Shown: one piece after another, positions 43,862 through 62,497 of the stretch
Position numbering within the stretch: position 1 is the first letter of the stretch
Layout: every line of letters starts with the position of its first letter
The notes under the pieces: generated by a model
Databases searched by the model: none
Told to the model about the DNA's origin: nothing
Seen by the model: only the letters and a program-made list of their open reading frames with translations
Translations under genes and position numbers: made by a program
Assembly (NCBI GenBank): GCA_964435195.1
Contig: CAYSYT010000003.1
Span: forward strand, 554 to 64,553
DNA length: 64,000 nt
Direction: 5' to 3'
Origin: an uncultured Christensenella sp.
Lineage (GTDB): Bacteria; Bacillota; Clostridia; Christensenellales; Borkfalkiaceae

Positions 43862-44767
43862 CTAAAAATTTTCAAGCATATACTTGCCTGCTTTATAAAG
43901 CATAACGTTTTCGAGTTCCAACTGTTCTAACGGTCCGTACGGGTTAACTTCGAAACTGAATACGCCGTCAAATTCGATTTTACGTAACGCTTTTACCGTT
44001 GCTTTCCAATCGACGCAACCGAAAAACGGCGGCAAATGACGGTCCATTTCACCGAACCAATCGTTTTGCGCCCCGAAGTTATCGTGTAAATGTAAAACCT
44101 TCAACTGTTTTCCTGCTTTAAGTATAAAACTTTCGACAGATTCGCCGTTTAAAAGGTTAAGATGCCCCACGTCTAAACAACAATAAAGCACGTCGTTACC
44201 GACGGCGTTAACAATCGATAAAAGTTCGTCCGAAGTCGAACACGCCGAAGGCACGACGGCTCTCTTCGTCCAATCGTACGCATAGCAGTTTTCTAACGCA
44301 CCGCGAACACCGTACTCTTGCAGATACGGTTTGATTATTTTGAAAAATTTAACGTTTCTTTCAAAATTCGCCTCCGCAAAAGCCGAATAATCGTACGGAA
44401 CGTTTTCTTTATTTTTAGGATACGGAATATACGGATGATAAACCAAATATTTTACGTTAAGCAGTTTCGCGCGCTTTACGGCTTTTATTTGGCTTTCGAT
44501 ATATTCGGGATTAAAAAGGTCGTCGGGATTTTCCGAATTGTGTCTTATATAGGGCGCGTGCGCCTGATAAAGCGAAACGCCGTACCCTTTAATAATCTCG
44601 TTTAAGCGAGAAAAATACTTTATTTCCTCTTCTTCCGAGCCGCCGTCAAATCCGGCGTTACGCGTCAAATCGAAATCGACGAATTTAAACCCTGCCTCGG
44701 CGGTTTTTTTAACCGCCGACGGCAAATCCAAAATTTTTTCAAACACCATATTCGTTCCGAGTTCCAT
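43862..44767 (-). CDS. sugar phosphate isomerase/epimerase (xylose-isomerase-like TIM barrel)
   Basis: 301 aa; AP_endonuc_2 pattern (HAPY, YLVYHP, LEN, DVGH, HLHDN). Confidence 0.8.
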   Translation of the reverse strand: MELGTNMVFEKILDLPSAVKKTAEAGFKFVDFDLTRNAGFDGGSEEEEIKYFSRLNEIIKGYGVSLYQAHAPYIRHNSENPDDLFNPEYIESQIKAVKRAKLLNVKYLVYHPYIPYPKNKENVPYDYSAFAEANFERNVKFFKIIKPYLQEYGVRGALENCYAYDWTKRAVVPSACSTSDELLSIVNAVGNDVLYCCLDVGHLNLLNGESVESFILKAGKQLKVLHLHDNFGAQNDWFGEMDRHLPPFFGCVDWKATVKALRKIEFDGVFSFEVNPYGPLEQLELENVMLYKAGKYMLENF

Positions 44768-44788
44768 AATCGTTATCTCCTTATTTTA

Positions 44789-46389
44789 TAAAAGGGGAAA
44801 AGTTTTTCCCCTTTTATCGGTTAGTTTTATACTGTCGGTCCGCAAACGAAATCCGTTATATAGAACGTCGTTTTACCTCTGCCGCCTAATCTTATCGAAT
44901 TGTTTGAAGTTCCCTGTCCGTAATAACGTACGGTAACCCAACCCGAGCCTTCGTAACCTTCGGTAAGTTCCTCTCCGTTCATAAAGAATTTAATCGATTC
45001 GCTTTGATTTGTAATATGCGTAGTATTGTTTATATACACGTTCGTAAGTCCCGAACCGTTTTTGGGCATTATACAGAAATCTATATCTTGTAGTGCAGTG
45101 CTGTATACCTTGAATTCGAGATACTCGTAATTACCTATCGTTCCGCCGTTTCTGAGTCCTAATGCGTAATTACCGCCTGTCGAACTTGTATAATACTGCC
45201 ATACGTTGCTTCTGCCTTCGTATTCCCCCACGTAATCCAATACTACCGAACCGTCTCTCGGATTTCCGTTTACTTCAAGAAGCAAAGTGCTTGATTTTCT
45301 CTCGCCTGCGTTAAACACTATATCGTAAGCGTTGTAATAATATACGTCGAGCGTGAGCGTACCGTCGGCTAAAACCGTACCCTTATAAGCGTCCGCCTTG
45401 CCAGAGGGATATACGTTCGAATTATTTCCGCCGAACCACCTATCCGCATAACCGCGACCGTAATCGGTAACACTGCTTCCCGCTACGCCTTTTTTAACGA
45501 CCGTCTCGCGAATTGTATAAGCCGACGGGTTACTTGCCGTTCTTACGTAATGGTTTACCGTATACGTGGTATCGAAGAAGTTGTCTTCTTCCGCAAAATA
45601 CGGTATTCCGTCCGTTCCCGTCTTAAACAACTCGGTATCGAGTCCGCTAAACGCCATATCGGTATCGCTTTGTAAATAAGTAATTACGTTACCCGTATAC
45701 GTTTGCGCGTTTTCGCTTCCGAATACTCCGAGCGACAATCCGCCCATTCTCTTATCCGTACTCATCACCACGTAAACGTTTTCATACGTATTTACAAGCC
45801 CTGCTGCCGAACTTCCGTGTCCGCTTGCCGCGTTAAATCCTACCAACGCTCCGCTGTCTATCACGTTATTTGCTCTTCGAGTCGAAAAATCAACTACGAA
45901 AACACTGTTTTTCACGGTCGCGCCGTACGTCGTTCCCGCTATCATACCTACCGTATTTACGATGTTGTCGAATACGTATCCTCTTACGTAAACGTTTTCG
46001 ACCGTTCCCATAAGTTTTTTTGCAAGTATTCCGCCGCCCGTTATCGCCTCTTGATACAACACCGCATTGTAGAAGCCTACGTTCTTAACTACGCCGTCTT
46101 TACCTACCGTTCCGAACAATCCGTCGCCGTCGTAAATTCCGTTTGCTATTACGTACCCTCTTCCGTCGAACGTACCTTGGAAGCCGCGTGCGTTATCTCT
46201 GTAATACGCTTGTGCGGTCGTTAACGTATCGGGGGTTGCGCTTACTTTAGTGCTTGCCAAATCTATACTGTTACCGAGAACAAAATATCCGCCGTACGCG
46301 TCGGTATCGGCATCTCTTCCGCCCGCCAACGTTTGCAAACTTAACAATTCTTCAGCCGTGGTTATAACCTTCGTTATGAACAAGCCGTC
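44789..46389. repeat. direct repeat copy 1 (1601 nt)
   Basis: Covers the 3' 1563 nt of the 897-aa gene plus the terminator. It matched 47749-49348 at every position I compared, apart from a 1-nt T indel in the hairpin loop. Confidence 0.9.
44790..44815 (-). terminator. hairpin after the 897-aa gene (part of repeat copy 1)
   Basis: aaaagggga/tcccctttt stem. It is identical to the hairpin at 47750-47774 except for one extra T in the loop. Confidence 0.45.
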
Positions 46390-47520
46390 GGTTTCTATAA
46401 TATAGTCTTCGAATTCGATTTTAACGGTTTGATTGTCGTAAGGCTTGCCGTTTTCAAAAGCGGCGGTAACCGTACCCAAACTTAAAGTAACGTTACTTGC
46501 GACCACGCTTCCGACCTTAACCGACGGAGCGTTCGTTATTTCCGCTATTTCTTCGGCTGTAAGCCCCAAATCGTCGGCAAGAGAAAGCGTCATCGTGTTG
46601 TTTGAAAGGTCTACTTCTCCGAGAGAATTTGCTTGTTTTACGTCTTTATCGACACCGCTAACGATAACTTTACGAGCGTATTTACCCGTTTCGTCGGCGG
46701 TAACCGTATACGAAAGACCGTTTTCGAGTTGAACTTCCAACGCTTGAACGTCGTTAGTGAAACTTATTTCCAAAGTTGCGCCTTTTTTAGTAACCGTAAA
46801 ATTATCCTCAACGCTGTATTTGGAATTTTCGTTATAAACGAATTTCAAACTATCGTCAACGTCGTTAAGTCTTTTTACGATACCCGTTTTAGTTACGCTT
46901 ATCGCAGTGGTTTTTCCTACTACCTCGTTTACGCCTGCCAAAAGATTAGCGTCGTTCGTAGTATCTTCTTTATACGCTTTAAGCATAACGGTTGCGGCTG
47001 TTCTTTCGCTACCGCTTACGTTTTGAGTATAATAAGTAGTGCCGTCAACGGTTACGTAACCGCGGTAACTTATGCTTCTGTTATAACTTGCGGCAGGAAT
47101 ATCGTAAAGATAAACTACCGATTGCATAAAGTCGGTATCTTCGGTACATTCCGTCCATAAGTGAGTGGTAACGGTATCTCTTACCGTTTCGGTATTTTTT
47201 GTGAGTTCGCCGCCGCTCAAAACGTCTGTCGGAATGATTAAAGTACCCGTAGATACGCCGTCTTTAATATTGCCGTTGCCGTCTGTAAGTATTTGGTCGT
47301 ATACTTCCTTTTCCAATAAAACGAAGAATCTGATTCCTATCGGATTATTAGTTCTGACCGACGCACCGCCGTTTTTGTAATACGCCGAATCGTTAAAATC
47401 ATCTACGGAAGCGGTACGAACGTCTGCGCTTACGCCCATATAACCGAACGCAGCAAATAAACTTAATAAAAGTACGATAAATAATGTCGAAACTGAAAAT
47501 TTCTTAATCTTTGCCGTCAT
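44827..47520 (-). CDS. large secreted protein: variable N-terminal region plus a conserved GLUG/beta-helix-like and carbohydrate-binding-like C-terminal module
   Basis: 897 aa with a signal peptide. The motif GFQGTFDGRGYVIANG...GLFGTVG is typical of GLUG-type surface proteins. The C-terminal 520 aa are identical to those of the 1685-aa protein. Confidence 0.7.
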   Translation of the reverse strand: MTAKIKKFSVSTLFIVLLLSLFAAFGYMGVSADVRTASVDDFNDSAYYKNGGASVRTNNPIGIRFFVLLEKEVYDQILTDGNGNIKDGVSTGTLIIPTDVLSGGELTKNTETVRDTVTTHLWTECTEDTDFMQSVVYLYDIPAASYNRSISYRGYVTVDGTTYYTQNVSGSERTAATVMLKAYKEDTTNDANLLAGVNEVVGKTTAISVTKTGIVKRLNDVDDSLKFVYNENSKYSVEDNFTVTKKGATLEISFTNDVQALEVQLENGLSYTVTADETGKYARKVIVSGVDKDVKQANSLGEVDLSNNTMTLSLADDLGLTAEEIAEITNAPSVKVGSVVASNVTLSLGTVTAAFENGKPYDNQTVKIEFEDYIIETDGLFITKVITTAEELLSLQTLAGGRDADTDAYGGYFVLGNSIDLASTKVSATPDTLTTAQAYYRDNARGFQGTFDGRGYVIANGIYDGDGLFGTVGKDGVVKNVGFYNAVLYQEAITGGGILAKKLMGTVENVYVRGYVFDNIVNTVGMIAGTTYGATVKNSVFVVDFSTRRANNVIDSGALVGFNAASGHGSSAAGLVNTYENVYVVMSTDKRMGGLSLGVFGSENAQTYTGNVITYLQSDTDMAFSGLDTELFKTGTDGIPYFAEEDNFFDTTYTVNHYVRTASNPSAYTIRETVVKKGVAGSSVTDYGRGYADRWFGGNNSNVYPSGKADAYKGTVLADGTLTLDVYYYNAYDIVFNAGERKSSTLLLEVNGNPRDGSVVLDYVGEYEGRSNVWQYYTSSTGGNYALGLRNGGTIGNYEYLEFKVYSTALQDIDFCIMPKNGSGLTNVYINNTTHITNQSESIKFFMNGEELTEGYEGSGWVTVRYYGQGTSNNSIRLGGRGKTTFYITDFVCGPTV

Positions 47521-47666
47521 TATTCGTTACCTCCGAACCCCGTATAACCCTCGTCCCATTCGGGCGCCCATTGTGTTGCACCGTCGTTGCTTATCGTAAG
47601 AACTTCTTTCGTAACAAATTCGCTGTAATTAAGCCACGGTGTAACGTACTTGTTTTTTTCCTTCAT
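47520..47666 (-). CDS. small ORF (48 aa), translationally coupled to the 897-aa gene
   Basis: ATG at 47666 lies 7 nt after AAGGAGG. Translation: MKEKNKYVTPWLNYSEFVTKEVLTISNDGATQWAPEWDEGYTGFGGNE. Its TAA stop shares an A with the downstream ATG (TAATG). It is too short for the ORF track, whose shortest listed ORF is 60 aa. Confidence 0.5.
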   Translation of the reverse strand: MKEKNKYVTPWLNYSEFVTKEVLTISNDGATQWAPEWDEGYTGFGGNE

Positions 47667-47748
47667 AATTAACCTCCTTACTTTATCAAACCGCAAGCGG
47701 TTATTGATTTTAAAATTTCAATTAAGTCCGTAAGAAATTTAAAACCCG

Positions 47749-49348
47749 TAAAAGGGGAAAAGTTTTCCCCTTTTATCGGTTAGTTTTATACTGTCGGTCC
47801 GCAAACGAAATCCGTTATATAGAACGTCGTTTTACCTCTGCCGCCTAATCTTATCGAATTGTTTGAAGTTCCCTGTCCGTAATAACGTACGGTAACCCAA
47901 CCCGAGCCTTCGTAACCTTCGGTAAGTTCCTCTCCGTTCATAAAGAATTTAATCGATTCGCTTTGATTTGTAATATGCGTAGTATTGTTTATATACACGT
48001 TCGTAAGTCCCGAACCGTTTTTGGGCATTATACAGAAATCTATATCTTGTAGTGCAGTGCTGTATACCTTGAATTCGAGATACTCGTAATTACCTATCGT
48101 TCCGCCGTTTCTGAGTCCTAATGCGTAATTACCGCCTGTCGAACTTGTATAATACTGCCATACGTTGCTTCTGCCTTCGTATTCCCCCACGTAATCCAAT
48201 ACTACCGAACCGTCTCTCGGATTTCCGTTTACTTCAAGAAGCAAAGTGCTTGATTTTCTCTCGCCTGCGTTAAACACTATATCGTAAGCGTTGTAATAAT
48301 ATACGTCGAGCGTGAGCGTACCGTCGGCTAAAACCGTACCCTTATAAGCGTCCGCCTTGCCAGAGGGATATACGTTCGAATTATTTCCGCCGAACCACCT
48401 ATCCGCATAACCGCGACCGTAATCGGTAACACTGCTTCCCGCTACGCCTTTTTTAACGACCGTCTCGCGAATTGTATAAGCCGACGGGTTACTTGCCGTT
48501 CTTACGTAATGGTTTACCGTATACGTGGTATCGAAGAAGTTGTCTTCTTCCGCAAAATACGGTATTCCGTCCGTTCCCGTCTTAAACAACTCGGTATCGA
48601 GTCCGCTAAACGCCATATCGGTATCGCTTTGTAAATAAGTAATTACGTTACCCGTATACGTTTGCGCGTTTTCGCTTCCGAATACTCCGAGCGACAATCC
48701 GCCCATTCTCTTATCCGTACTCATCACCACGTAAACGTTTTCATACGTATTTACAAGCCCTGCTGCCGAACTTCCGTGTCCGCTTGCCGCGTTAAATCCT
48801 ACCAACGCTCCGCTGTCTATCACGTTATTTGCTCTTCGAGTCGAAAAATCAACTACGAAAACACTGTTTTTCACGGTCGCGCCGTACGTCGTTCCCGCTA
48901 TCATACCTACCGTATTTACGATGTTGTCGAATACGTATCCTCTTACGTAAACGTTTTCGACCGTTCCCATAAGTTTTTTTGCAAGTATTCCGCCGCCCGT
49001 TATCGCCTCTTGATACAACACCGCATTGTAGAAGCCTACGTTCTTAACTACGCCGTCTTTACCTACCGTTCCGAACAATCCGTCGCCGTCGTAAATTCCG
49101 TTTGCTATTACGTACCCTCTTCCGTCGAACGTACCTTGGAAGCCGCGTGCGTTATCTCTGTAATACGCTTGTGCGGTCGTTAACGTATCGGGGGTTGCGC
49201 TTACTTTAGTGCTTGCCAAATCTATACTGTTACCGAGAACAAAATATCCGCCGTACGCGTCGGTATCGGCATCTCTTCCGCCCGCCAACGTTTGCAAACT
49301 TAACAATTCTTCAGCCGTGGTTATAACCTTCGTTATGAACAAGCCGTC
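47749..49348. repeat. direct repeat copy 2 (1600 nt)
   Basis: Covers the 3' end of the 1685-aa gene plus the terminator. The offset to copy 1 is 2959 nt over most of the repeat and 2960 nt on the low-coordinate side of the 1-nt loop indel. Confidence 0.9.
47750..47774 (-). terminator. hairpin after the 1685-aa gene (part of repeat copy 2)
   Basis: Same stem as 44790-44815. Confidence 0.45.
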
Positions 49349-52300
49349 TGCGGTTATAACGAAGTTTTCAAAATAGAGAACCAACGTCTGCGTTCCGTAA
49401 GGCGTACCGTCTACGAACGTTATAACGACGTTTTCGCCGTCGAGTGCGGTTTGCAACTCAACGTTACCTATCCACGCTTGCGGTACTTTTTTAATAGTAG
49501 CCGTATCGGTTGCGTCTATTTTTAAATCTTCCGCAAACGACAACGTTAGCGTTTTAGTCAAATCGATGTCGCCGAGTGGGTCAACCGCTCTTTCCGGCAT
49601 TACGTTTTGTACTCTGACCGTTGCGGTGTACTCTTCGCCGAGTTCCGACCAAGTTACGGTAATAATCGCTATACCGGATATTCTTCCCGCTTTTACCAAC
49701 CCGTTAGCGTCTACCGATACGATATCGCTGTTAGAAGACGTCCACGTATAAGTAGGCTCGTTATAATTACTGCCGTTTACTATAAGGCTAACCGTAAGTT
49801 GCTTTTCGGAAATATCCGAAGAATCGCTAACGAATTGCGTCAAAATCAAATCTTTTTCGTTAACGCTTAAAGAAACGTTGTCTTTAACGTTAACGGTAAT
49901 CGTTTCGGTTACTTCAACGCTGCCGCTCTTATACTCTACGGTAATTGTCGTAGTACCCTTTTTAACGCCCGTTATAACGCCGTCGGCAGTTACGGTAGCA
50001 ACCGAATCCGAAGCCGATTTATAAGATATTAAAGATAAATTACCCGTTTTTCCGCCCCAACCGGTTACTACTTTTTCAATAGAAATTTCTTCGGTATCGC
50101 CGACCGTAACGTCAATATTTTTGTTTAATCCCGAGAAGTATGCGTTAAACTCCGTCTTTTTCAACTGTGCGTTAGCGATATATAAATAGCCGTCGTTGTC
50201 TTTTACGGTACTTATAAAGAACAGTCTGCTTAACGTTCCCGCCGAGAAGTCAACGAATTGAACGTGAACTTCGTACCAAGTGTTAGACGCAATGTTTAAC
50301 TGTCGCGTGCCGTCTTTATAGAATTGAATGTATTCTTGATAATCTCTGACGTTTTTGTAAGTCAAACCATTAAGTTGTTTATTTACTATTGCACCGTTTT
50401 CAAAAGTGTAAGCGCTCATATACACGTCGTTTCCGCTCGGGAAATACAAATCGAATACTAATTCCGTATAGCCTTTTTCTACCAACCATGCGTTGGAAAC
50501 ACCCATAAGTTCCGCACGTCTTTCCCAATAAGTTGAAGTATTTACCGAATTAAAGCGGTAAACGTTATCTTTGCCTTGGAACGTACCGATATTTCTTATA
50601 AACATAGAATCTTTACCGGCTGCGTCGCCTATAACTGCGTTTGCGCCGTCGGAATTGCTAACGGCAACGGAATCCTGATATCTGTAATAGAGTTTAAGCG
50701 CAGTACTTCCGTTCGTTTGTACGGTTGCGCTTGCAACGGTATCGGAAACACTCTTATCGACCGCATAACCGCTAATATTCAACGGTAGCGCTTCAATCTT
50801 TGCGCCGACGGCAGTTTTCGAAACGATTTGAGAATACTGTTCGTAACTGTCCGCTTGCGTCCTTTTCTCAACGTAATGAGTAACCGAATATTTAGCGACG
50901 AAACCGATTTCGCTGTTAAAATACGGAACTTCGCCGTCAACCGTCCTCCAAATATCCTTTGGCAATTCGGCGAAAGTAACCGCTGATTCTTCACCGAATC
51001 GAACGGCGGTTATTCCTCTGCCTTGTTCGGCGTATAAACGCTTATTAGCAGTGTTAACGTCGAATAACGCGACGGAATTTTCGTAAACCATATCCGTAAT
51101 AACGTAAACGTTTTCAAACACGCTCGTTTCGTCGGGCAAATACGGGGCTAATACCGCATTGTTCGATTTTGAGGACGAATTCAATTCTCTCGTATTTGAA
51201 TATACCAAACTGATTACGACGTTTCTGTACTTTGCGCCGACGGAAGCATAACATAACGTGCCGTTATTAGTCGTGCTGTTCGTCATAGTCGCCGTAACGG
51301 AAATATTTTCCAAAGTACCGAATATCTTTTGAGCAAACAAACCGCTGCCGTTGGAGTTGTCACTACCGAATTCCGCGTTAACCAACGATAAATTTTTAAC
51401 CGTCGCGTTTCTTCCGATAGTACCGAACAACCCGCCGTTGCCGTTAAACTTACCGTTGGAGAGAACGTATCCTCTACCGTCGAAAGTGCCTTGGAAACCC
51501 GACGTCGGTTTTCTGCTGCTAACCTTGTCCGTCGGTGCGTTTATAACCGTAGCGCCGAGGTCGATATTGTTACCGAGAACGAAATAACCGTCGTAAGCGT
51601 CGTTTTCGTCATCTCTGTTACCCGCCGCCGCGGTGATACTCGCAACGTCGGAAGCCGTTTTCAATATTTTAGTAACGAATAATCCCTCTCTCTTAAAAAT
51701 ACGGTCGGAAAGTTCTATACTTAAAGTCTGCACGCCGAAAGACAATCCGTTAGTCGGTATAACAAGACTTTCTCCGTCAACCGAACCTTCGTTGTCGGTG
51801 TTGCCGATGCCGGATTTTACTATTCCGTTATAACCTTCAATATCCAATTCTGAAAGCGCGACTCTGAAACTTCCGACGGACAAATCGACGTCGCCGAAAC
51901 TTTCGTTTAATTCCACGACCGACTTATACGTATTTACCGTAGTAGAAGCTGTACGTATTTTATCGCCGTAACTATAAGTTGCCGTTATCGCTGCGCTGCC
52001 GACTTTTGTTCCCGACGTAACTTTTCCGCTACCGTCTACGCAAGCGACGTCGCTATCCGAAGAAGACCATTCTACGCTACCGTCGACAGACTTCTCTTCG
52101 CCCTTGTCGGTTAACGTTACGTTAAGTGCCTTTTCGGCGATTTCGCCTTCGTTTATTCCGGAAGTCATAGCAAGTTTTACCGAAACCTCGTCTATGGCAA
52201 AATAAACTTTATCTTTTACGCCGACGGTAAGCGTTGCTTCTATTTCTCTTCCGTCAACGGTGGAATACGCCGTAATTATCGTTTCTCCTATACCGACGCC

Positions 52301-52869: not shown

Positions 52870-54720
52870 TCAGGTATCTATTTCGTCAAGACCGAAGCGC
52901 TTCATATCGTATTCGAGCGAATTTCCGTCGCCCACGTAAACGCTTGAAAAGTTATATTCTTCCGATAAAAAGCGGAAAGGAATACTGTCAAGACAAATTC
53001 TGTCGTATAAAAGCGTATATTTGGTTTGATTAACGCCTTTAAGATATTTAATGGTACTGTATGCTTCTTCGATATAACCCATCCATCCGTCGAGCATTGA
53101 TTTCGGCCAATATTCGGCTTTTTCCAATTCCGCCGTACCGCCCTGACCTCTGATTCCGTCTCTGTTAATGATATACGTCATATACGCACTGTATTCGTCA
53201 AAAAGTTTACGCATAGGCGTAGCGGCGTCTTTATAATAATTCTTAAAGAAATCGTCGTAAAGTTTATTTAAATCCGCGTCGTTATTCCACGAAAGATTTG
53301 TACGTACGTACATCTTTAAACGACTCCAATCCGTCCATTTCGCAACGTTACACCTGTCTTCTTCGAAAAGATAAAATACTCCGTTATTTTCAAGATACTT
53401 ATAATAATTTCTTAAATCGTGAAAATCGTAATACGGATGAAAATTCTGTCCTTTATAATAATAGTTGTACGACCAGAACATAAACTTATCGGTAAGCGCC
53501 TTCCATTTTTGCATTATTTCATTGTATTCTTTGTTTTTATCGTTATCGTAACTGTAATATCCCGCTGCGGCTATCGGCGCATATTGAACCAAGAGATTAT
53601 CTTCGAAAATAAGCGATTCGTCGTTTGCCACCCAGTTTCCGTTAGCGTCTTTATGCGCAGGCGCGTCCGTAGTGCTGTGATACGCAAACATATAAAGATA
53701 AATATTTCTTTCCGGACAAACTTCGTTGTTCCAAACTTTTATTCTGCGAGCACATTCGTTCATAAACAAAATCATCGCGGCGGAATCCGTGCCGTAACGG
53801 TCTTTACTTGCTTTGCAATTATCACAAGAACACCACCCGCCGTCATCCATTTGCGTAAAAGACAAAGCCGTCGCATTCGGGTTAGCCAGGAAAGCAGCCT
53901 TCATTTTTTCTACTACGTGTTCGACCAATCCGTCGAAGTCGGTAGTTAAACAAAGCTGTAAACCGTGGTTAGAAACCCACTCGGGATGAGCGGCTCTTTC
54001 AGATTCCGTCACTACCGAAAAGAAATTGTGATAATACGTGCTTCCGAAAGTCATCATGAAATCGCTTTGCATATTAGACATCATTCTTCTCGTATAAGTA
54101 GTGTTGGTCATAGATTCGCCGGTGCCCTGAATTCTCCAAACGATATCGGGGACGTCTACCACGTCTACGTCAACCAGCTTTTCGTCGGTAACGCCGCTTT
54201 GTAAAGCAATTTCGTCGGGAGCATAACATTCGTAATCGAATTGCGCAGATAAAAACCCGTATACGGAGTTAATCGTTCCGTAAATGCTTCCGCCCACCAA
54301 AAATACCGATTGTCCTACGCGTTTCATCATATAACCGGTTTCTTTAAGAGCGGTTTTGTCTACCGTAACGTTCGCGCCCGAGAGCAAAGAAGTTTCACCT
54401 ATTGAAATTACTTTCATTCCGTCCGAATAAACCATATCTTTATCGCTTTCTTGCGTAATGGTTATTCCCGTAGCCTGACGGAAGAAAAGAGAAAATTCGT
54501 TAAGAGCGTAAATCATTAAACTGTCGTCTTTTTGCTCTTCGGGGTATACGAGTTTATACTCGGTAACACTGTTTTTTACCAAGTCGTACTCGCTGCTTTG
54601 ATAAGTAGGCGTTTCTACGGCTTCCTCCTCTTCTTTATTACCGCCGCTGCAAGCAACTGCGGTAAACATCGTCAGAACCGTCAACGAAATCGCCAAAAAT
54701 CTTTTTAATAATTTCTTCAT
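52870..54720 (-). CDS. DUF4838-like lipoprotein (putative glycoside-hydrolase-like)
   Basis: 616 aa with lipobox TAVACSGG. The overall pattern, including WCSCDNC, resembles DUF4838 proteins found in polysaccharide-utilisation loci. This is a recalled resemblance, not a search result. Confidence 0.4.
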   Translation of the reverse strand: MKKLLKRFLAISLTVLTMFTAVACSGGNKEEEEAVETPTYQSSEYDLVKNSVTEYKLVYPEEQKDDSLMIYALNEFSLFFRQATGITITQESDKDMVYSDGMKVISIGETSLLSGANVTVDKTALKETGYMMKRVGQSVFLVGGSIYGTINSVYGFLSAQFDYECYAPDEIALQSGVTDEKLVDVDVVDVPDIVWRIQGTGESMTNTTYTRRMMSNMQSDFMMTFGSTYYHNFFSVVTESERAAHPEWVSNHGLQLCLTTDFDGLVEHVVEKMKAAFLANPNATALSFTQMDDGGWCSCDNCKASKDRYGTDSAAMILFMNECARRIKVWNNEVCPERNIYLYMFAYHSTTDAPAHKDANGNWVANDESLIFEDNLLVQYAPIAAAGYYSYDNDKNKEYNEIMQKWKALTDKFMFWSYNYYYKGQNFHPYYDFHDLRNYYKYLENNGVFYLFEEDRCNVAKWTDWSRLKMYVRTNLSWNNDADLNKLYDDFFKNYYKDAATPMRKLFDEYSAYMTYIINRDGIRGQGGTAELEKAEYWPKSMLDGWMGYIEEAYSTIKYLKGVNQTKYTLLYDRICLDSIPFRFLSEEYNFSSVYVGDGNSLEYDMKRFGLDEIDT

Positions 54721-54734: not shown

Positions 54735-57701
54735 TTATGCAACTTTAATCTTAAATACTTTCAAAGCGATATTTCCCGCCTCGTCCTGAGCATAATATTT
54801 TATAGTCCATTCGCCCGCTTTATCGAACGTTAACGTTTCGGAACTACAAACGTATAATGCTCCCGTGGGGTCGTTTACGAGAATACATTTTTCAACGTCT
54901 TCCGCAGCGCTTATATTATCGGTAACGGTCATCGTCGGAAGTTTCAAACCGTCGCCGACCTTATAACTTTCTTTAATTTCGCCGTTCACCGTTATTTGCG
55001 GTATTTCCATATCCAAAACGTTAACGGTCAATCTGTAAGTTTCCGACCTGCCCGTGCAGTTGTAAACGGTATAAGTTATTCTGTAACTGCCGTATTCCGA
55101 AAGAGTGATTTCGTGCGATTCAACTCCGTTAGCGTTACCGAGCAATTTCCCGGAAGGACCCGAAACAGTTACGGTGGCGCTGACTTGCGTATCGAGAACG
55201 TCTTGTACGCTCAACGAATTAACCGTAAGCACGGAATTAAGGTCTAACTGTTCGGGGTAATCCCCGTTAACTTTGAATTGCGGTTTATGGTTAGAAACGT
55301 TAAACGTCGAAGTCAAAACCTGTCCGTTAATATTCGTCAAAGAAACTTGCGCATCGCCCGTGATATCCAACAGTTTTAAAGAAACATCGTATTCGATTGC
55401 GGAAAAAATTTCGCTTATTTTCAAGCTCAAAGAACCGCCGTCTAATATCTTGCCGTCGTTATACGAAAGTTGCAACGTTTTTCCGCCCGTAAATCCGCCG
55501 TTCTTTACCGATACTTGGGTATTTTTGCCGTTTACGTAATATACCGTGCCGCTATCGACTTTTACCAATTCTATTTTAAGTTGATTATCTTGATTATGCG
55601 CATCAGTCAACAGTATTTGCAAACGTCCGAATCGATTTTTATCGGTGTCTATTTTTATGCCGAGTTCGAAACGGTGCGTCATTAAAGATTTAATATATTT
55701 TATTTCTCCCGAATCGCCGGACTTCGTATTCGCCGTAAACGAAACGCAACCCTCTTCTTGCGATACGGTAAAATCGGAAGCGTCGAAATATTTAGAAAAT
55801 GCTAATTTTTCTTCACCGTCAACCGTTTCCGTTACTTTTATAACCTTAACGGTAAATTCATCCGTTTGGCTGCTTCCTACGGAATTTTTAGCGACGTATT
55901 TTACTTTGATATCGCCAACCGCCGTCGGAGTAAACGGATTTGACGCTTTTTGTCCGTCAACGTATAATTCCGACTGTACGTACGAATCCGTTCCGTAAAC
56001 GTATGCCGACGGCAAATCGAAATCGTAACTTTGTCCGTAAATCAAATATTCGGGGCAACTTACTTCTCCGAATACAGGTAAAGAATCGTCTACGACGGTT
56101 ACCGTATGATTAGCGCTTTCGATTCTACCCGTAACGTCGGTAACCGTATATACTAACGTATAAACGCCTTCCGACCTCGGTATAAACGTATCGGTTATCA
56201 CTTCCGTTCCGCCGTTCGGCTTGGTTGCGGTTATCGTTACCGTAAGATTGCCCGAACCTTTTGAAACGTCGTAACTCGGCAACGCGTAAGCGTAACCGAC
56301 TTTACCCTCGCCCGTCGCGGAACTTAACGAAATCGCAGGGTTTTCGGTCGTTCCCGTAGCGAAGCGTAAAACCTTTTCGCCAACGTTGCCGAATCTGTCG
56401 GTTGCCGTATAGACCAATGCGTACACGCCGTTTCTGTCGATAGAAATTTTTTCGTCTTTTATTTGCAATTCGGCTCTGCCGTTGGTATCGTATGCGTAAT
56501 ACGCCCTTACGTTTACAGTTCTTTCACCGCTGTACAAATCGAACGCTGTAGCGTCGAATACGGGGTAAGTTTTACCTTTTACCGCAAGGGGAAGATAATC
56601 TTCGGAATAGCCGGAAGTATTTACCGTTATTACGGGTGCTTCGTCGTCTACAAACTCCGATTCTTCGAGGTCGAAATCCGCTAATTTAGTTATAATAAAG
56701 TTGAAATGCGAACCCACGTAGCCCGTCGCTTCTATCGAAAGCATAACCTCGTCCGAAGTAAAGCCCGACCAAGCGTCTTGCGGTAAATATTTCGTATATT
56801 TGGGGTCGTCGAAATCGGCAATCATAAGAGTCGCCGAATAAGAAGAAATCCACAACTGTTTTTCTTCGGGTTTATAGATAATCCCTACGGGGTCTTGCCC
56901 TGTCGGGTTATAATTAGAACCTACCGTTTCCGCATTACCGTAAAAAGACGTGTATACCGCCTGTCCGAAACGGTCGTTAACGTGAATTCTGTTTATATCC
57001 GAATAATCCTGTGCGATGGGGCTTTGTCCGCAAGGCGCCGCCAAAGCGTAAGAAACCGAATATACGTACGGTGCGCCGTTAAACGCAACGCTTTGTATCT
57101 TTATCGAAAGGTAATTGCTTGAATCGTGAATATCGGTAAGCCTTATCCACATTGCGGAAGCGTCTCTCGTACCCTTCGTTTGCGGGGTTAAGTTAAAATT
57201 CAAAAAACTTTTCCCGTCGAATTGTTTAAGGTCGATAACCTTGTTTACGTTAAAAGTTTCGCTTTCCGCAAGAGCGACGTCTAATCCGACTAAACCCGTG
57301 TTAAAATTCGAATCGTCTTTTCCGTAACGAATCGTACTGTTTTCTCCCGATACCGAATAAGCATTTTGAACAACCTTAAACGATTGAGTTTCTTTAACGA
57401 GTTGTCCGCCTATTTTGGCGCGATACTCAACCGTATATTGTCCGGGGTCCTCGAAGGTAACCTTCGAAGTTGCAACCGCCGTGCCGTCGGGATAGTACAA
57501 AATAATATCCGCGTTTGCGTTACCCGACGAATTTGAAAGAGTACGCGAAGGAATGACCAAAGTTTCGCCGACTTTGTAAGTTTCGGCAATAATCCCTTCC
57601 GTAGCCTTAGTGTTTACATTGGAAAACGCAAACAAACAAAACGAAACCGCCAAAACGAACAATAAAACGACAATTCCGCTTCTCTTCAATTTTTTCGTCA
57701 T
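54735..57701 (-). CDS. large secreted protein with multiple Ig-like (DUF5011/HYR-like) domains
   Basis: 988 aa with an N-terminal signal anchor. It has repeated G-x-Y-x-hydrophobic-x-Y-x-x-x-D/N-x-x-G segments (GVYALVYTATDRFGN, GVYTLVYTVTDVTGR, GSYRITYTVYNCTGR, GEWTIKYYAQDEAGN). Confidence 0.6.
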   Translation of the reverse strand: MTKKLKRSGIVVLLFVLAVSFCLFAFSNVNTKATEGIIAETYKVGETLVIPSRTLSNSSGNANADIILYYPDGTAVATSKVTFEDPGQYTVEYRAKIGGQLVKETQSFKVVQNAYSVSGENSTIRYGKDDSNFNTGLVGLDVALAESETFNVNKVIDLKQFDGKSFLNFNLTPQTKGTRDASAMWIRLTDIHDSSNYLSIKIQSVAFNGAPYVYSVSYALAAPCGQSPIAQDYSDINRIHVNDRFGQAVYTSFYGNAETVGSNYNPTGQDPVGIIYKPEEKQLWISSYSATLMIADFDDPKYTKYLPQDAWSGFTSDEVMLSIEATGYVGSHFNFIITKLADFDLEESEFVDDEAPVITVNTSGYSEDYLPLAVKGKTYPVFDATAFDLYSGERTVNVRAYYAYDTNGRAELQIKDEKISIDRNGVYALVYTATDRFGNVGEKVLRFATGTTENPAISLSSATGEGKVGYAYALPSYDVSKGSGNLTVTITATKPNGGTEVITDTFIPRSEGVYTLVYTVTDVTGRIESANHTVTVVDDSLPVFGEVSCPEYLIYGQSYDFDLPSAYVYGTDSYVQSELYVDGQKASNPFTPTAVGDIKVKYVAKNSVGSSQTDEFTVKVIKVTETVDGEEKLAFSKYFDASDFTVSQEEGCVSFTANTKSGDSGEIKYIKSLMTHRFELGIKIDTDKNRFGRLQILLTDAHNQDNQLKIELVKVDSGTVYYVNGKNTQVSVKNGGFTGGKTLQLSYNDGKILDGGSLSLKISEIFSAIEYDVSLKLLDITGDAQVSLTNINGQVLTSTFNVSNHKPQFKVNGDYPEQLDLNSVLTVNSLSVQDVLDTQVSATVTVSGPSGKLLGNANGVESHEITLSEYGSYRITYTVYNCTGRSETYRLTVNVLDMEIPQITVNGEIKESYKVGDGLKLPTMTVTDNISAAEDVEKCILVNDPTGALYVCSSETLTFDKAGEWTIKYYAQDEAGNIALKVFKIKVA

Positions 57702-57718: not shown

Positions 57719-58627
57719 TTAACCTTTTATACCGCCCATAGAAACGTTGCCTATAAGACGTTTATGGAAACATAAAAATACTATAAATATCGGTACGAAA
57801 ACTATCATACAACCCGCAAGTTTATGCGGCGTACTGTTTATTACGCTCTTTCCAGAGAATGTATACTTGTACAATCCGAACGAAATAGTAGGATGATTCG
57901 GCAAATAAACGAGCGCGGTCTGGAATTCGTTCCAATAATTTATAAATTGCAACAACATAACCGTAACGAACGTAAACTTAACTAACGGCAACATTATCTG
58001 AAACAATATTCTGTAATTGCCTGCCCCGTCGATTTGAGCCGCTTCCGAATAGTCTTTCGGTACGGATTTGAACGCCGCGTGAAATACCAAAAAGTACATT
58101 CCCAAGAAGTTGAAAGATAAAAGCCACGTACCTATTATGTTGTCGTACAATCCTAAATTCATAAGCATCTGAACTTCCGAAGGAAGCGAACCTACGATAG
58201 GCAACATCATAGTAACGAGTACGGTTCCGTAAATAATCGAGCACGCTTTGTAAGAAAAACGAGCGCAAGCGTAAGCGACTATACAACACGATAACGTACG
58301 GAAAAACGAACAACCGCCTGCGTACAAAATAGTATTAAGTAACATTTCCGGTATAAATACGGGTCTGTTGTTTTTTACTCCTACGTAAAAATTCGCAATC
58401 GCCGTTTGATAATTTTCCAACGTCCACGTCGGCGGAAGCCCGAGCGAATCCATACCGTAATCGATTTTATCCTTAAACGTGTTCATTATTCCCCAGCCGA
58501 AAGACATCGCGAGAGACAAAACGTAAATTATAAGAACGACAAGACAAATAATCGTAAAAATCAAATTGACCGCGGATTTTTGTTCGCCGACTTTATTCTT
58601 TTTAGATGTTTTTAATCTTTTTGTCAT
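57719..58627 (-). CDS. carbohydrate ABC transporter permease (CUT1, LplC-like)
   Basis: 302 aa, 6 TM, with the EAA loop YSEAAQIDGAGNYRILFQIMLP. Confidence 0.88.
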   Translation of the reverse strand: MTKRLKTSKKNKVGEQKSAVNLIFTIICLVVLIIYVLSLAMSFGWGIMNTFKDKIDYGMDSLGLPPTWTLENYQTAIANFYVGVKNNRPVFIPEMLLNTILYAGGCSFFRTLSCCIVAYACARFSYKACSIIYGTVLVTMMLPIVGSLPSEVQMLMNLGLYDNIIGTWLLSFNFLGMYFLVFHAAFKSVPKDYSEAAQIDGAGNYRILFQIMLPLVKFTFVTVMLLQFINYWNEFQTALVYLPNHPTISFGLYKYTFSGKSVINSTPHKLAGCMIVFVPIFIVFLCFHKRLIGNVSMGGIKG

Positions 58628-58630
58628 ACA

Positions 58631-59554
58631 TCAATCCTCACTCGGTCCGAATTTATTAAGTACGAACCTTATACCGAAGGTAATAGGAATCGCAACTATC
58701 GTACATAAAATACCGATTGCCGACAAATACGGGTAATCGGAGAGCCTGCCGTTTTGCACGCCTTTATAAAGGTAATAACCCAATGTAATATCCGACGGGA
58801 AAACGTCTGTACCGTAGAAAGAATATAAATTCATTTGATTAGTGAATATTTGCACCACGCTAACCGTTACGAATACGACGAAAGTCGGGTAAACGAGCGG
58901 CACGACTATATGTATAAACTCTCTGACAAAAGTAGTGCCGTCTATTTTTCCCGCTTCGATAACCGAGTCCGAAATATTGTTCATCGCGCCGAGGAACATA
59001 AGTATCTGCGTTCCGAACCCGACCCAAAGATTGTATATGATAATCGTAGTAAACCTCGTATCGGAGTTGGCTAAAAGTCCGTTCATTTTAATTCCCAAAA
59101 TATTTGCAAAACCCGGAAGTCCTTTTTCTACGAACTGACGGTAAACGGCAACCATAACTATACTCGATACTATCGAAGGCATAAACAACATTACCTTAAA
59201 AAATCCGTGTCCCGGCATTTTTTTGAAAATATAATAGGAAAAAATCATTCCCAAAACTATGCCTACGCAAACGTTTACGACCCACGATATAAGCGAATTT
59301 TTAATTGCGGTGGTAAAAGTCGTGGTAGTAGAAAATTCAGTGAAAAATTTACTGAAATTTTTAAACCATACAAACGTCGTCTCGCTTGTTATAACGTCGT
59401 ATTCCTTTAAGGACAACAAAATAGAATTAAAGTTAACGCAAATATAAAACAAAAAAAACTGTGTAAGCGGTAATACTACCAACGAAATAAAGAAAAGCAA
59501 ATCCTTTCTTTTTTGTTTTTGCATTCCGCCCTTTTTACCCATAACCGTTTCCAT
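58631..59554 (-). CDS. carbohydrate ABC transporter permease (CUT1, LplB-like)
   Basis: 307 aa, 6 TM, with the EAA loop VIEAGKIDGTTFVREFIHIVVP. The exact start is uncertain. Confidence 0.88.
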   Translation of the reverse strand: METVMGKKGGMQKQKRKDLLFFISLVVLPLTQFFLFYICVNFNSILLSLKEYDVITSETTFVWFKNFSKFFTEFSTTTTFTTAIKNSLISWVVNVCVGIVLGMIFSYYIFKKMPGHGFFKVMLFMPSIVSSIVMVAVYRQFVEKGLPGFANILGIKMNGLLANSDTRFTTIIIYNLWVGFGTQILMFLGAMNNISDSVIEAGKIDGTTFVREFIHIVVPLVYPTFVVFVTVSVVQIFTNQMNLYSFYGTDVFPSDITLGYYLYKGVQNGRLSDYPYLSAIGILCTIVAIPITFGIRFVLNKFGPSED

Positions 59555-59559: not shown

Positions 59560-61278
59560 CTATTTAATACCGTTCCACCAACTTGCCGTCTTTGAAGAAA
59601 CTATTCCTTCATAATAGTTTTTTGCCGTAACACTCGAATTGTCGTTGAAAGTCGACGACGGAACGTTATAAGTAGTTCCGTTTATGGTAGTTGTCCAAAT
59701 ACCGTTTGAAAGCGGATTAAACATAGAATAATTTTTTATCGCCGTCACGTTCGAGGAATACGGAGTAACTATATCGGAATTTTTATAATTTTCGTAAACG
59801 CTTCTGCCGAAGTTAGACATCGAACCGAGTTCTGCGTCGGTAAGCGTAAAATCGTACGGACGAATAAGACTCGTTATCTCGGTGAACGACGCAAGAGCAG
59901 AGCGTGTGTGAATGTATTTAACAAAAGTTTCCGCGACCTTTTCTTTATTTGCGGCAATTTTTCCGTTAATGAATAACGCCGAGTTGTAAGCGTCGCAAGT
60001 TACGGCTTTCTGACCTATTTGCTCGTCCGTGGGATGCGGGAAAGGTAAGAACGCAAAATTACGATTTTCTTTTTTAGCGCTTGTTCCGTATTTCTTTTCA
60101 AGCCTGTTAAAATAGTCGGTCGCTTCGTTTTCCCAATGGCAACCTTCAACCAACATAGCCGTACGTTTTCCGCTTTGAGTATCGAAAGCGCCGTTGAGGA
60201 ATTCGAGATGCGCATCGCCTTGCTCGTAACTGCCGAAACAGTAATTAGAATCGTAATAATTTGTATTTTTAACAAGTTGTTCTACAAAAGAAAGCGCGTA
60301 ATATCTTCCCGCCTGACGTTGCAATTCGTAACCGTTATCGGTAGTAATCGTCGTTGCGGAATCCATGACGGGATTTCCGCCTGCGTCGAATTCTTTAATA
60401 AGATTCGTTGCGATTCCGTCGTAAGTATAGTTCAAACGCATTTGTTCCGCGCCTTCGTTGTTTGCCCACAAGCAATATAACATTCTGTACATATAAAACT
60501 GATATTGCCCCGCCCAAACTATCGGCGTAATTGCACGTTGAGTAGCCATTTCGTTGCAAAGAGCGAAAAATTGTTCGTAAGTTGCGGGCAACCCGTCGTC
60601 ATAAGTACCCTTTTTGCCGTCCGGACCTGCGGATAGCGTACCGTTACTACCCGTGAACACGTAATTAGAACCGTTCTTTTTTGCGGGACATTCATCGTTT
60701 TCCGTCGCTTTCGTAACGTCGCCCGCGAAATATAAACCTTCTTCCGTCCACACGTCGACGTCGTACACTATACCCGTATAGTTGACGTTAAACGGCAGAG
60801 CGTAATAATGCCCGTCTTTTTTGAAATAATCGATATATTGCGAAGACATTTTTCCTTCAATCGTTTGACCTGCCTCTCCTACGTCGGTCATATCCGCTTG
60901 AACGACGTCCTTAATATCGTGCATATGCCCTGCGTTAGCGACGGTATAATAATCTACGTCTTCCGTAAAAATAACTTCGGTTTCGACACCCGGCATATAA
61001 GAAAGCAAATTGTTTCCTCCGGGAGCGTCCGTGCTGGTAGTAACTTGTACGCCCAACTTACCTTCTTCGAACGAAGTGTTTGCAAACTCTTTTTCGAAGT
61101 CGAGTGCCCATTGCTTAAGCCAATCCGAGCCGTAACCCGACGGAACGACCGAAACGGAAAGTTGAGTTTTGGTATCGTCTATCGGACGATTGTCATCCGA
61201 ACCGCAACCGCCGAGTAAAGGCGTTGCAAACAGTAGCGCCATTATAACGCTTAAAAACTTAAATGATTTTTTCTTCAT
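59560..61278 (-). CDS. extracellular solute-binding lipoprotein (large LplA-type sugar-binding protein)
   Basis: 572 aa with lipobox LLGGCGSD. Its position is upstream of the two CUT1 permeases. Confidence 0.8.
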   Translation of the reverse strand: MKKKSFKFLSVIMALLFATPLLGGCGSDDNRPIDDTKTQLSVSVVPSGYGSDWLKQWALDFEKEFANTSFEEGKLGVQVTTSTDAPGGNNLLSYMPGVETEVIFTEDVDYYTVANAGHMHDIKDVVQADMTDVGEAGQTIEGKMSSQYIDYFKKDGHYYALPFNVNYTGIVYDVDVWTEEGLYFAGDVTKATENDECPAKKNGSNYVFTGSNGTLSAGPDGKKGTYDDGLPATYEQFFALCNEMATQRAITPIVWAGQYQFYMYRMLYCLWANNEGAEQMRLNYTYDGIATNLIKEFDAGGNPVMDSATTITTDNGYELQRQAGRYYALSFVEQLVKNTNYYDSNYCFGSYEQGDAHLEFLNGAFDTQSGKRTAMLVEGCHWENEATDYFNRLEKKYGTSAKKENRNFAFLPFPHPTDEQIGQKAVTCDAYNSALFINGKIAANKEKVAETFVKYIHTRSALASFTEITSLIRPYDFTLTDAELGSMSNFGRSVYENYKNSDIVTPYSSNVTAIKNYSMFNPLSNGIWTTTINGTTYNVPSSTFNDNSSVTAKNYYEGIVSSKTASWWNGIK

Positions 61279-61292: not shown

Positions 61293-62300
61293 TTATATAA
61301 GCGACACGAATCTGTCGATTTGTTCTTCCGTCGTTAAATAAGTAGTTGCCAATCTTACTACGCGTTGTTCTTCGTTCCAGTAATGCAAATCGTAAACCTT
61401 CGTAATTTTTTCGTAAGTTTCGTCGTCGAAAATAGCAAATACCATATTCGATTGAACGGGGTAAGCTGTTTTAATGCCCTTTTCCGCGAGTTTTTCGCCA
61501 AGCGATTTTGCCGCGTTGTTTGAAAGAATCGAATTTTTAATCCAAAGTTCGCTTTCGAGTATAGCCGCCATCTGCACGCTCAAAAACTTTGATTTAGACA
61601 TGTGTTGAAGCGATTGTTTTTGAGAATATTTAAGATAATTTGCAAATTCTCTCCTACGGAAAACAATCATTTCTCCCATCATTGCGCCGACCTTCGTTCC
61701 TCCGAACGAAAACGCGTCGACGCCGGTTTTTTCAATCATATCCGTAAGATTAGTACCGAGTGCCACAACGCCGTTACCGAGACGCGCGCCGTCCATATAA
61801 ACGTACATATTTTTCGAATGAGCGTAGTCGCACAACGCCTTAATTTCGGCGTTGGAATAAACCGTGCCGAATTCCGTCGGCTGCGTAATCGCGATAACCT
61901 TCGGGTTGTATTTATAGTTTTTTACGCTACGCAAAAGTTTATCGACTAACTCGGTAGTGAGTTTCCCGTCGGGACTTTCTATCGCAAGAATTTTATTTCC
62001 CAAATTAAATTCGAGCGCACCCGCTTCGTAAGTGTTTAAATGCGTTTGTTTTGCGCATAAAACCGTAGACCATCTGTCAAGCATAGCTTTCATTGCCATA
62101 ACGTTAGCCGCAGTTCCGTTAATTGCAAACGTCGTATAAATCTCGTCAGAAAAATAACGTTGCATAAGAGCGGTAGCCTTTTTCGCATAACTCTCTTCAC
62201 CGTATCCGCCGTCAATCGGTTCATCGTTAATTTTCGCGATAGCGTCCAGCAAATCCGGGTGAATATTTATCCATACTTCGCCTCTGAAATCTTTGAGCAT
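61293..62300 (-). CDS. threonine aldolase / beta-eliminating lyase family PLP enzyme
   Basis: 335 aa with the pattern INGTAANVMA...ITQPTEFGTVY...DGARL...SFGGTKVG (putative PLP lysine). Confidence 0.75.
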   Translation of the reverse strand: MLKDFRGEVWINIHPDLLDAIAKINDEPIDGGYGEESYAKKATALMQRYFSDEIYTTFAINGTAANVMAMKAMLDRWSTVLCAKQTHLNTYEAGALEFNLGNKILAIESPDGKLTTELVDKLLRSVKNYKYNPKVIAITQPTEFGTVYSNAEIKALCDYAHSKNMYVYMDGARLGNGVVALGTNLTDMIEKTGVDAFSFGGTKVGAMMGEMIVFRRREFANYLKYSQKQSLQHMSKSKFLSVQMAAILESELWIKNSILSNNAAKSLGEKLAEKGIKTAYPVQSNMVFAIFDDETYEKITKVYDLHYWNEEQRVVRLATTYLTTEEQIDRFVSLI

Positions 62301-62326: not shown

Positions 62327-62355
62327 ATTTTAAGTCCGTTGAACGAATTAGTCAA
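62327..62355 (-). promoter_or_regulatory. sigma-A type promoter of the leftward carbohydrate operon
   Basis: The minus strand reads TTGACT, a 17-nt spacer, then TAAAAT. Confidence 0.5.
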
Positions 62356-62378
62356 TACCCTTTTCGATTTGCGATTAA

Positions 62379-62428
62379 AACGCTCAAAAGTTGCTCGTTA
62401 ACGCTCAAATAAACGATCAAAGCGAGCA
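62379..62428. promoter_or_regulatory. candidate DeoR operator repeats
   Basis: AACGCTCAAA at 62379 and 62400, and AACGATCAAA at 62412. The last two are bracketed by the inverted repeat TGCTCG/CGAGCA (62392-62397 and 62422-62427). Confidence 0.35.
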
Positions 62429-62467
62429 TTACTGTGTTTTTTGGCTGAAAGTATTTTAAAAAAACAG

Positions 62468-62497
62468 TTGACATTATTTCTTCCGTGTGTTTATAAT
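62468..62497 (+). promoter_or_regulatory. sigma-A type promoter of the DeoR regulator gene
   Basis: TTGACA, an 18-nt spacer, then TATAAT. It lies inside the ORF-track N-terminal extension of the DeoR ORF. Confidence 0.5.

Follow-up and report, generated by a model that had tools for sequence, protein, structure and literature searches.

In this study, we analyzed a 64,000-nucleotide stretch of DNA, called the window below, from the genome of an uncultured Christensenella sp. of the family Borkfalkiaceae (Christensenellales; assembly GCA_964435195.1, contig CAYSYT010000003.1), and within it a locus that comprises a leftward gene set and a divergent DeoR-family regulator. The gene set encodes a pyridoxal phosphate (PLP) enzyme of the threonine aldolase family, the binding lipoprotein and two permeases of an ATP-binding cassette (ABC) importer, a 988-aa exported protein, a 616-aa lipoprotein with a DUF4838 domain, a 1685-aa Big_2/GLUG lipoprotein, an 897-aa paralogue of the latter and a cytoplasmic TIM barrel. 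Our analyses suggested that the locus is likely one copy of a conserved Firmicute cassette for glycan capture and import, that is, a Gram-positive polysaccharide-utilization locus (PUL) in which the DUF4838 protein would be the enzyme.

The DUF4838 lipoprotein and the recurrence of the cassette

A preliminary description of the sequence had recognized no glycoside hydrolase (GH) at the locus. This claim did not hold, and the locus is not enzyme-less, because DUF4838 is the catalytic domain of the CAZy families GH163 and GH185 (PMC10570127); the puzzle of the missing glycosidase is thus largely resolved by a family that was recently entered into CAZy. The 616-aa protein matched PF16126 with 122.1 bits against a gathering cut-off of 26.6, and positions 19-322 of the 325 profile positions were covered. 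The founder of GH163, BT1035, is a surface endo-beta-N-acetylglucosaminidase (endo-beta-GlcNAcase) acting on complex N-glycans, and the founder of GH185, Sp_0475, is a 6-sulfo-GlcNAcase with substrate-assisted catalysis, in which Q174, H227, D309, and Y436 are important; a site containing His, Asp, and Tyr is used by both (PMC10570127). The only precedent for a substrate is a glycan that contains N-acetylhexosamine.

We aligned 20 DUF4838 sequences, namely the window protein, its three paralogues, 15 proteins from other Firmicute metagenome-assembled genomes (MAGs) and one from a Bacteroidales MAG (22% identity). Eight residues (H231, D292, N321, Y347, P354, W406, W416, and Y418) were invariant in all 20, the window copy included, and since every family-invariant residue is kept, the window protein looks like an intact enzyme. 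H231, D292, and Y418 may be the counterparts of H227, D309, and Y436 in Sp_0475. A cluster of four cysteines, C257, C297, C299, and C302 (C...WCxCxxC), was found in the Bacteroidales protein and in most DUF4838 proteins of the cassette. Since four lineages (L024, L025, L026, and L031) have lost it, this cluster probably binds a metal for structural purposes and can be dispensed with. In the DUF4838 tree, the window copy grouped with those of the related loci L033 and L011 in one clade with 100/100 support, and the paralogues from its own genome lay far off, so these paralogues are old. A PDB profile search with eight DUF4838 proteins returned only non-significant matches of the N-domain to GH67 and GH84 (E 0.24-0.66), and this search found no solved structure of the family in the PDB (E > 0.2 only). 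PDB sequence searches with the 616-, 897-, 988-, and 1685-aa proteins likewise gave nothing useful.

The layout had been described earlier as resembling that of a Gram-positive PUL, and comparison with other genomes bore this out. We took as the core of the cassette the binding protein, the two permeases, a protein of ∼1000 aa, the DUF4838 protein and the Big_2 protein, in this order. The core order was present in 19 loci of other uncultured Firmicutes, at 23-47% identity. Seven of them (L011-L016 and L023, with L014 partly degraded) were reached through the 988-aa protein; through DUF4838, in a search that used a 3-sequence alignment, we reached 12 Firmicute loci, all of which showed the order, and one Bacteroidales locus, which did not. 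The named sources of the loci reached through DUF4838 were Ca. Scatosoma and Ca. Borkfalkia (Christensenellales) and Christensenellaceae; further sources were chicken and human gut MAGs and two MAGs labeled 'Bacilli bacterium'.

The window genome (G000; 1.93 Mb, 124 contigs, 95% complete) carries four cassettes, on contigs C3, C2, C29, and C11, with 24-41% identity among paralogues. Binding-protein paralogues head the other three, each of which is flanked by enzyme genes of its own: GH95, GH2, a GH29-like gene and a GDSL esterase at C29; GH2 and GH78 at C11; and GHL6, SDR, FAD oxidoreductase, PTE, M24 peptidase, and DUF4432 at C2. These flanking enzymes of the sister cassettes lack signal peptides. 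Similar neighbors, likewise without signal peptides, were observed in other genomes, with GH78, BNR, KDPG aldolase, and KDG kinase beside L013, GH39 and three GFO genes beside L015, and GH4 beside L016. DUF4838 was found in 27 of the 40 sampled genomes of the genus (among handles G301-G355), with the highest counts, 12 (in a genome of ∼1.5 Mb), 11, and 9 copies, in G318, G320, and G317, whose genomes measure 1.5-2.3 Mb. Given this distribution and the 23-47% identity across many MAGs, the cassette is probably the main glycan-harvesting device of the uncultured Christensenellales-like gut Clostridia. Furthermore, the conserved order, the classical GH neighbors and the genus-wide DUF4838 expansion make a role in glycan foraging very likely, and the window copy would be one substrate-specific variant of the foraging cassette.

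This variant forms an orthologous group with L023 (∼99% nucleotide identity), L033, and L011, the last of which was also obtained from a second sample (L012); in all members the PLP gene comes first and an AP_endonuc_2 gene follows the cassette. Compared with L033, identity was 74% for the PLP enzyme and 70 and 73% for the permeases, and it was 55% for the DUF4838 protein, 53% for the binding protein, 52% for the TIM barrel, 44% for the 988-aa protein, and 37% for the Big_2 protein. The exposed proteins, at 37-55% as opposed to the 70-74% of the PLP enzyme and the permeases, therefore evolve fastest. The window copy itself is putatively controlled by DeoR, is headed by the PLP gene, has no classical GH neighbor and contains the 897-aa chimeric duplicate.

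With regard to the importer, the locus encodes no ATPase, as had been stated before, and the single MalK-type (OB_MalK-bearing) ATPase of the genome lies on contig C46. The binding protein and two BPD_transp_1 permeases at this locus, together with the ATPase at C46, make up the components of a CUT1-type importer, and we infer that this MalK/MsmK-type ATPase serves it.

On the basis of these results, the following course can be proposed. First, a DeoR-family repressor, probably bound at two TTGAKCGTTT-type sites between the divergent genes, would control an operon that starts with the PLP gene and ends with that of the 1685-aa protein. Second, the membrane-tethered 988-aa protein and the lipid-anchored 1685-aa protein would hold the polymeric glycan as non-catalytic binding or scaffold proteins, and the lipid-anchored DUF4838 enzyme, a predicted TIM barrel of the GH20-related GH163/GH185 kind, would cleave it. 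Third, the 572-aa lipoprotein would bind the released oligosaccharide and the two permeases would import it, powered by the lone MalK/MsmK-type ATPase; the TIM-barrel isomerase/epimerase and the threonine-aldolase-family enzyme might then process the products in the cytoplasm. Domain identities, lipoboxes, the modeled fold of the 988-aa protein, GLUG module homology, the conserved gene order and the classical GH neighbors of sister cassettes are results of the analysis, whereas the activity of the DUF4838 protein here, the assignment of glycan binding to particular proteins, the operator and the order of the steps are all putative.

The large surface proteins and competing explanations

The 988-aa protein had homologues in 115 clusters, nearly all of ∼1000 aa, aligned end to end and derived from metagenomes or MAGs; the few that are named appear as 'hypothetical protein [Clostridia bacterium]'. 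Its AlphaFold2 model (72-sequence alignment) reached a predicted local distance difference test (pLDDT) score of 90.4 and displayed an N-terminal hydrophobic helix followed by an unbroken series of immunoglobulin (Ig)-like or cadherin-like beta domains, with larger sandwiches at ∼110-345 and ∼630-800. All Foldseek matches in the PDB were to Ig arrays, to adhesins such as SraP, to the S-layer proteins SbsB and EA1, or to macroglobulins, and the family profile matched the SraP adhesin at 3e-10; whole-chain template modeling (TM) scores were low, as they are for multi-domain models. No enzyme fold was found in the model by this comparison, nor did Pfam, NCBIfam, and PDB sequence searches reveal an enzyme domain in the ∼3500 residues of the large proteins. 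In a class sample of 300 genomes, a thin sample in which the long query was partly scored, the family was detected only in the window's own genome, a result of little weight. By its place in the gene order, the 988-aa protein is a constant partner of DUF4838.

The 1685-aa protein contains Big_2 arrays and two modules at ∼aa 315-847 and 1029-1685, each composed of a GLUG-type parallel beta-helix, a beta-grasp and a beta-sandwich. The label 'GLUG-like' in the preliminary description proved apt: a profile of 16 module copies matched PDB 3n6z ('putative immunoglobulin A1 protease') over the whole module with an E-value of 3.3e-15, two of the 16 copies matched PF05342 (Peptidase_M26_N; best E 3.7e-5) and two matched PF07581 (Glug) weakly. 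The window's own module copies fell below the Pfam thresholds. With Pfam and NCBIfam, neither the 1685-aa nor the 897-aa protein matched the M26 zinc-protease domain (Peptidase_M26_C) or any other protease domain. An iterated search collected 105 non-redundant module copies, at 1-4 per protein, in which conservation falls largely on Gly residues, on the GFxGxFDGxG turn with D452 and on K/R479-N480; N509 and N538 extend an Asn ladder with N480 at a spacing of ∼29 residues. Because the modules repeat and their conservation is of the ladder type, a binding or structural role is probable for them. Thus, of the two candidates for glycan processing that were proposed earlier, DUF4838 stands and the GLUG modules look like binding modules; the 988-aa and 1685-aa giants together look like binding or scaffold proteins.

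Several observations weigh against the reading of the locus as a glycan cassette with DUF4838 as its enzyme. The possible correspondence of catalytic residues given above is based on residue type and position. No cytoplasmic glycosidase or sugar kinase was found at this locus, which leaves the downstream pathway incomplete, and the hairpins behind the 1685-aa and 897-aa genes point to separate transcription of the 897-aa gene and the TIM-barrel gene. In addition, polar residues of the GLUG modules (D452, 97%; K/R479, 97%; and E/D391, 91% of the 105 copies) could form an active site, and the neighbors of the modules in BFVD are phage proteins of the 'pectate lyase superfamily / parallel beta-helix' kind (E 2e-6 to 1e-4, TM 0.1-0.27). 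Lyases and depolymerases, too, can have a beta-helix fold.

These last points lead to the explanation that depolymerization, of a lyase or GH28-like type, is actually carried out by the modules in the 1685-aa and 897-aa proteins, and that DUF4838 only trims the products. The right-handed parallel beta-helix, the phage proteins in BFVD and the conserved polar residues all speak for it, as do the PDB neighbors of the beta-helix model, which are tailspike and capsule depolymerases (E 2e-3 to 1e-2). However, no PDB match by Foldseek reached 1e-3, and with TM-scores as low as those given, the BFVD matches identify the fold class only. Pfam, NCBIfam, and PDB sequence searches gave no match of the module region to lyase or GH28-type enzyme families, and at the sequence level it is significantly related only to 3n6z and the M26_N/GLUG family. 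In IgA1 proteases, the M26_N/GLUG region is not the catalytic one, which also counts against catalysis here. Furthermore, D452 lies within the structural GFxGxFDGxG turn and N480, N509, and N538 form the Asn ladder, the 2-4 repeats per protein fit avidity better than catalysis, and no beta-helix module was matched in the 442-aa Big_2 protein of the sister cassette on C11. We therefore regard catalytic beta-helices as unlikely.

A second explanation concerns the cargo. As the preliminary description hinted, the cassette might import a glycopeptide or amino-acid-linked glycan, from which the threonine-aldolase-family enzyme would catabolize a released beta-hydroxy amino acid. Both here and in the related loci L023, L033, and L011 (with L012), the PLP gene is the first of the operon, and it lies 14 nt before the binding-protein gene. 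It was found in only one of 24 other genomes of the genus (E 1e-20 or better) and, on this distribution, is an accessory rather than a housekeeping gene. The M24 Xaa-Pro-type peptidase of the sister cassette on C2 and the action of GH163 on glycoprotein N-glycans would suit such a cargo as well. Nevertheless, in G320, the sole other genome of the genus with the gene, it does not adjoin the transporter, other cassettes are without it, and a peptidase or amino-acid transporter is missing from the window locus. The enzyme also matched ordinary L-threonine aldolases from end to end (L-threonine/phenylserine aldolases 7w0i, 5vye, and 1v72 in the PDB; 1e-45 to 1e-47 over residues 5-333) and possesses the PLP-binding lysine motif SFGGTK; since it missed the NCBIfam equivalog cut-offs (45.5 against 312 for LtaE), it was assigned at the family level only. 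An amino-acid-linked cargo is thus quite improbable. As a side observation, the place behind the PLP gene that the ABC binding protein has in the window is taken at the G320 locus (L038; C205:1511-2656) by a 381-aa lipoprotein.

There is very little probability, finally, that the large proteins are adhesins or S-layer-like envelope proteins without a nutritional role and that the transporter is merely a neighbor: the SraP, SbsB, EA1, and Ig-array relatives of the 988-aa protein and the lack of a detected enzyme domain in the large proteins fit this, but their genes keep their places beside those of the ABC importer and DUF4838 in the 19 other loci and the four of the window's own genome, the intergenic gaps are short, and the sister cassettes have classical GH neighbors.

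Transcription units, regulator, and neighboring genes

All genes of the preliminary description were recovered at their coordinates (Table 1), and Pfam and NCBIfam agreed with most of their names. Lipoboxes were present on the binding protein, the DUF4838 protein and the 1685-aa protein; in the 988-aa and 897-aa proteins we found simple signal or anchor sequences instead.

Table 1. Position of features of the locus and of the sister cassettes; coordinates without a contig prefix refer to the window.
Feature	Position	Strand	Remarks
DeoR-family regulator, divergent	62487-63275	plus	HTH_DeoR 1.8e-12, DeoRC 2.5e-41
Promoter-like site of the DeoR gene	62468-62497		score 12/12
Operator-like motif TTGAKCGTTTWAWT, two copies	62374-62387 and 62407-62420	minus	just upstream of the promoter-like site of the operon
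Promoter-like site of the operon	62327-62355		
Threonine-aldolase-family PLP enzyme	61293-62300	minus	first operon gene, cytoplasmic; PF01212 (Beta_elim_lyase) 6e-35, 121 bits
572-aa solute-binding lipoprotein of a CUT1-type ABC importer	59560-61278	minus	SBP_bac_8 2e-5; lipobox LLGGC
Two ABC permease genes	58631-59554 and 57719-58627	minus	BPD_transp_1
988-aa exported all-beta protein	54735-57701	minus	faint Ig-type matches only (Pfam)
616-aa DUF4838 lipoprotein, candidate surface glycosidase	52870-54720	minus	PF16126 3.6e-35; lipobox AVAC
1685-aa Big_2/GLUG lipoprotein	47786-52843	minus	three Big_2 matches, 7e-21; lipobox FVGC; probable start ATG 52816
Terminator-like palindromic hairpin after the 1685-aa gene	47748-47776	minus	13-pair stem
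58-aa open reading frame upstream of the 897-aa gene	47520-47696	minus	from the list of open reading frames; within the unique part of the inserted unit
897-aa exported chimeric paralogue	44827-47520	minus	no Pfam match
Near-identical hairpin after the 897-aa gene	44788-44817	minus	resembles the copy at 47748-47776
Xylose-isomerase-like TIM barrel, cytoplasmic, sugar isomerase/epimerase type	43862-44767	minus	AP_endonuc_2 7e-35
Perfect direct repeat, 1586 bp	44804-46389 and 47763-49348		spacing 2959 bp; base-by-base comparison
Paralogous cassettes of the window genome	C2:44840-56208; C29:11279-23185; C11:134-10514		

The leftward genes of the ∼18-kb locus had been described as an operon, and this was supported in part. 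From the PLP gene through the 1685-aa gene the intergenic gaps are 3-26 nt, and a single operon likely spans 62300-47786, as far as spacing can indicate. Because of the two hairpins and a gap of 265 nt upstream of the 897-aa gene, the whole 18 kb is probably not one operon, and the 897-aa gene and the TIM-barrel gene probably form transcription units of their own.

The divergent DeoR flank, also part of the earlier description, was confirmed by matches to both domains of the regulator, whose true start is probably the ATG near 62523, giving 250 aa as in L023; a divergent DeoR gene was also observed in L011, L023, and L033. The two copies of TTGAKCGTTTWAWT were the only matches with 0-1 mismatches in the window, and in L011 and L033 the orthologous intergenic region carries this motif at the corresponding position. 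We infer that this pair is a candidate DeoR operator.

The 897-aa gene appears to be a composite. Owing to the 1586-bp repeat, the last ∼520 residues of the 897-aa and 1685-aa proteins and the starts of the terminators are identical. The N-terminal ∼296 aa of the 897-aa protein, in turn, showed 58% identity to a 1209-aa protein on C17. Its model was confident for aa 295-730, comprising an Ig-like domain, the parallel beta-helix and the beta-grasp; the C-terminal sandwich was moderately confident, with CBM4-2 as its best small Foldseek match, and the N-terminal 290 residues had a pLDDT below 50. L023, which derives from another sample (SRR33013287), is ∼99% identical in nucleotides on both sides and lacks the 2959-bp unit that carries the gene, and the gene is also missing from L011 and L033. 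Either a chimeric 897-aa gene was inserted recently in this strain only and homogenized by gene conversion, or the repeat was collapsed in the short-read assembly of L023. The 1209-aa protein (C17:21163-24792, L003) also contains CBM_4_9 and metallo-beta-lactamase domains, and its gene is preceded by a further group of genes for two permeases, one binding protein and two large proteins.

Beyond the TIM-barrel gene lies a 257-aa open reading frame at 43006-43779, without a Pfam match and conserved in L023, and on its far side a Gfo/Idh/MocA (GFO) gene at 41964-42899, which overlaps by 4 nt with a gene for a 403-aa protein with two transmembrane helices. This pair (40756-42918), also present in L023, is equipped with a separate promoter-like site and a strong terminator. 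Further GFO genes occur near the sister cassettes L014, L015, L016, and C11, and this recurrence hints that an oxidative 3-keto-glycoside route via the GFO gene and the TIM barrel may exist; the separate promoter and terminator of the GFO gene at this locus and its coupling to a membrane protein count against its membership here. A polysaccharide deacetylase gene (39799-40719) and an SSB-like gene were considered as members of the locus and ruled out by a strong terminator at 40712-40735.

Comparison with known systems

A Gram-positive PUL (gpPUL) has been defined as containing at least a polysaccharide-degrading enzyme, a carbohydrate transporter and a transcriptional regulator (PMC5320581). 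The window locus encodes all three, namely the DUF4838 protein, a putative enzyme by its domain, the binding protein with its permeases, and DeoR. It thus resembles the gpPULs of Roseburia and Eubacterium rectale (PMC5320581) in the trio of enzyme, transporter and regulator and in its ABC importer. Unlike these gpPULs, it has no multimodular classical GH with carbohydrate-binding modules (CBMs) as its extracellular enzyme; instead, there is a fixed trio of separate surface proteins, namely a ∼1000-aa Ig/beta-sandwich protein, a DUF4838 protein and a Big_2/GLUG protein. We found no paper describing this trio, and no study of any cassette protein, in the literature searched.

With the GH163 enzyme BT1035 of Bacteroides thetaiotaomicron, the window protein shares the DUF4838 catalytic domain, the surface location and a place in a glycan-utilization locus beside an importer (PMC10570127). 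In contrast, the host is a Firmicute, the importer is of the ABC type rather than SusC/D, and an F5/F8 type C domain was not detected in the window protein with Pfam; the window DUF4838 protein is only ∼22% identical to a Bacteroidales DUF4838 protein, and its placement is at the level of the Pfam domain. With the GH185 enzyme Sp_0475 of Streptococcus pneumoniae, an exo 6-sulfo-beta-GlcNAcase, it shares DUF4838 and residues that correspond to H227, D309, and Y436 in kind and position (PMC10570127). Among the marks of the cluster to which Sp_0475 belongs are a sulfate-binding Arg (R633) and the absence of signal peptides, in keeping with a cytoplasmic location (PMC10570127), whereas the window protein is a lipoprotein with a signal peptide. 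As to the GLUG modules, 3n6z and the Peptidase_M26_N/GLUG domains are alike in the whole-module match and the common GFxGxFDGxG motif; they differ in that the window module has no M26 metalloprotease domain, continues into a beta-grasp and a CBM4-like beta-sandwich, and is set in Big_2 arrays.

We suggest, tentatively and as a possibility that is itself doubtful, that the trio is a surface machine of a kind not described before, which would do in Gram-positive bacteria the work of the complex of SusD, surface glycan-binding protein (SGBP) and surface enzyme in Bacteroidota. It might be assembled on the ABC binding protein, with variable GLUG/beta-sandwich modules setting its specificity, and a whole group of uncultured gut Clostridia might rely on it as their principal means of foraging; the cargo of the PLP-headed subtype could then be an amino-acid-linked glycan. 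The uncultured Christensenellales-like gut Clostridia have small genomes and their diets are little known. With three surface proteins and one importer, the cassette is a compact target that could yield new glycosidase specificities in the GH163/GH185 domain family, and it could be used to test whether Gram-positive bacteria, too, build surface complexes of the Sus type.

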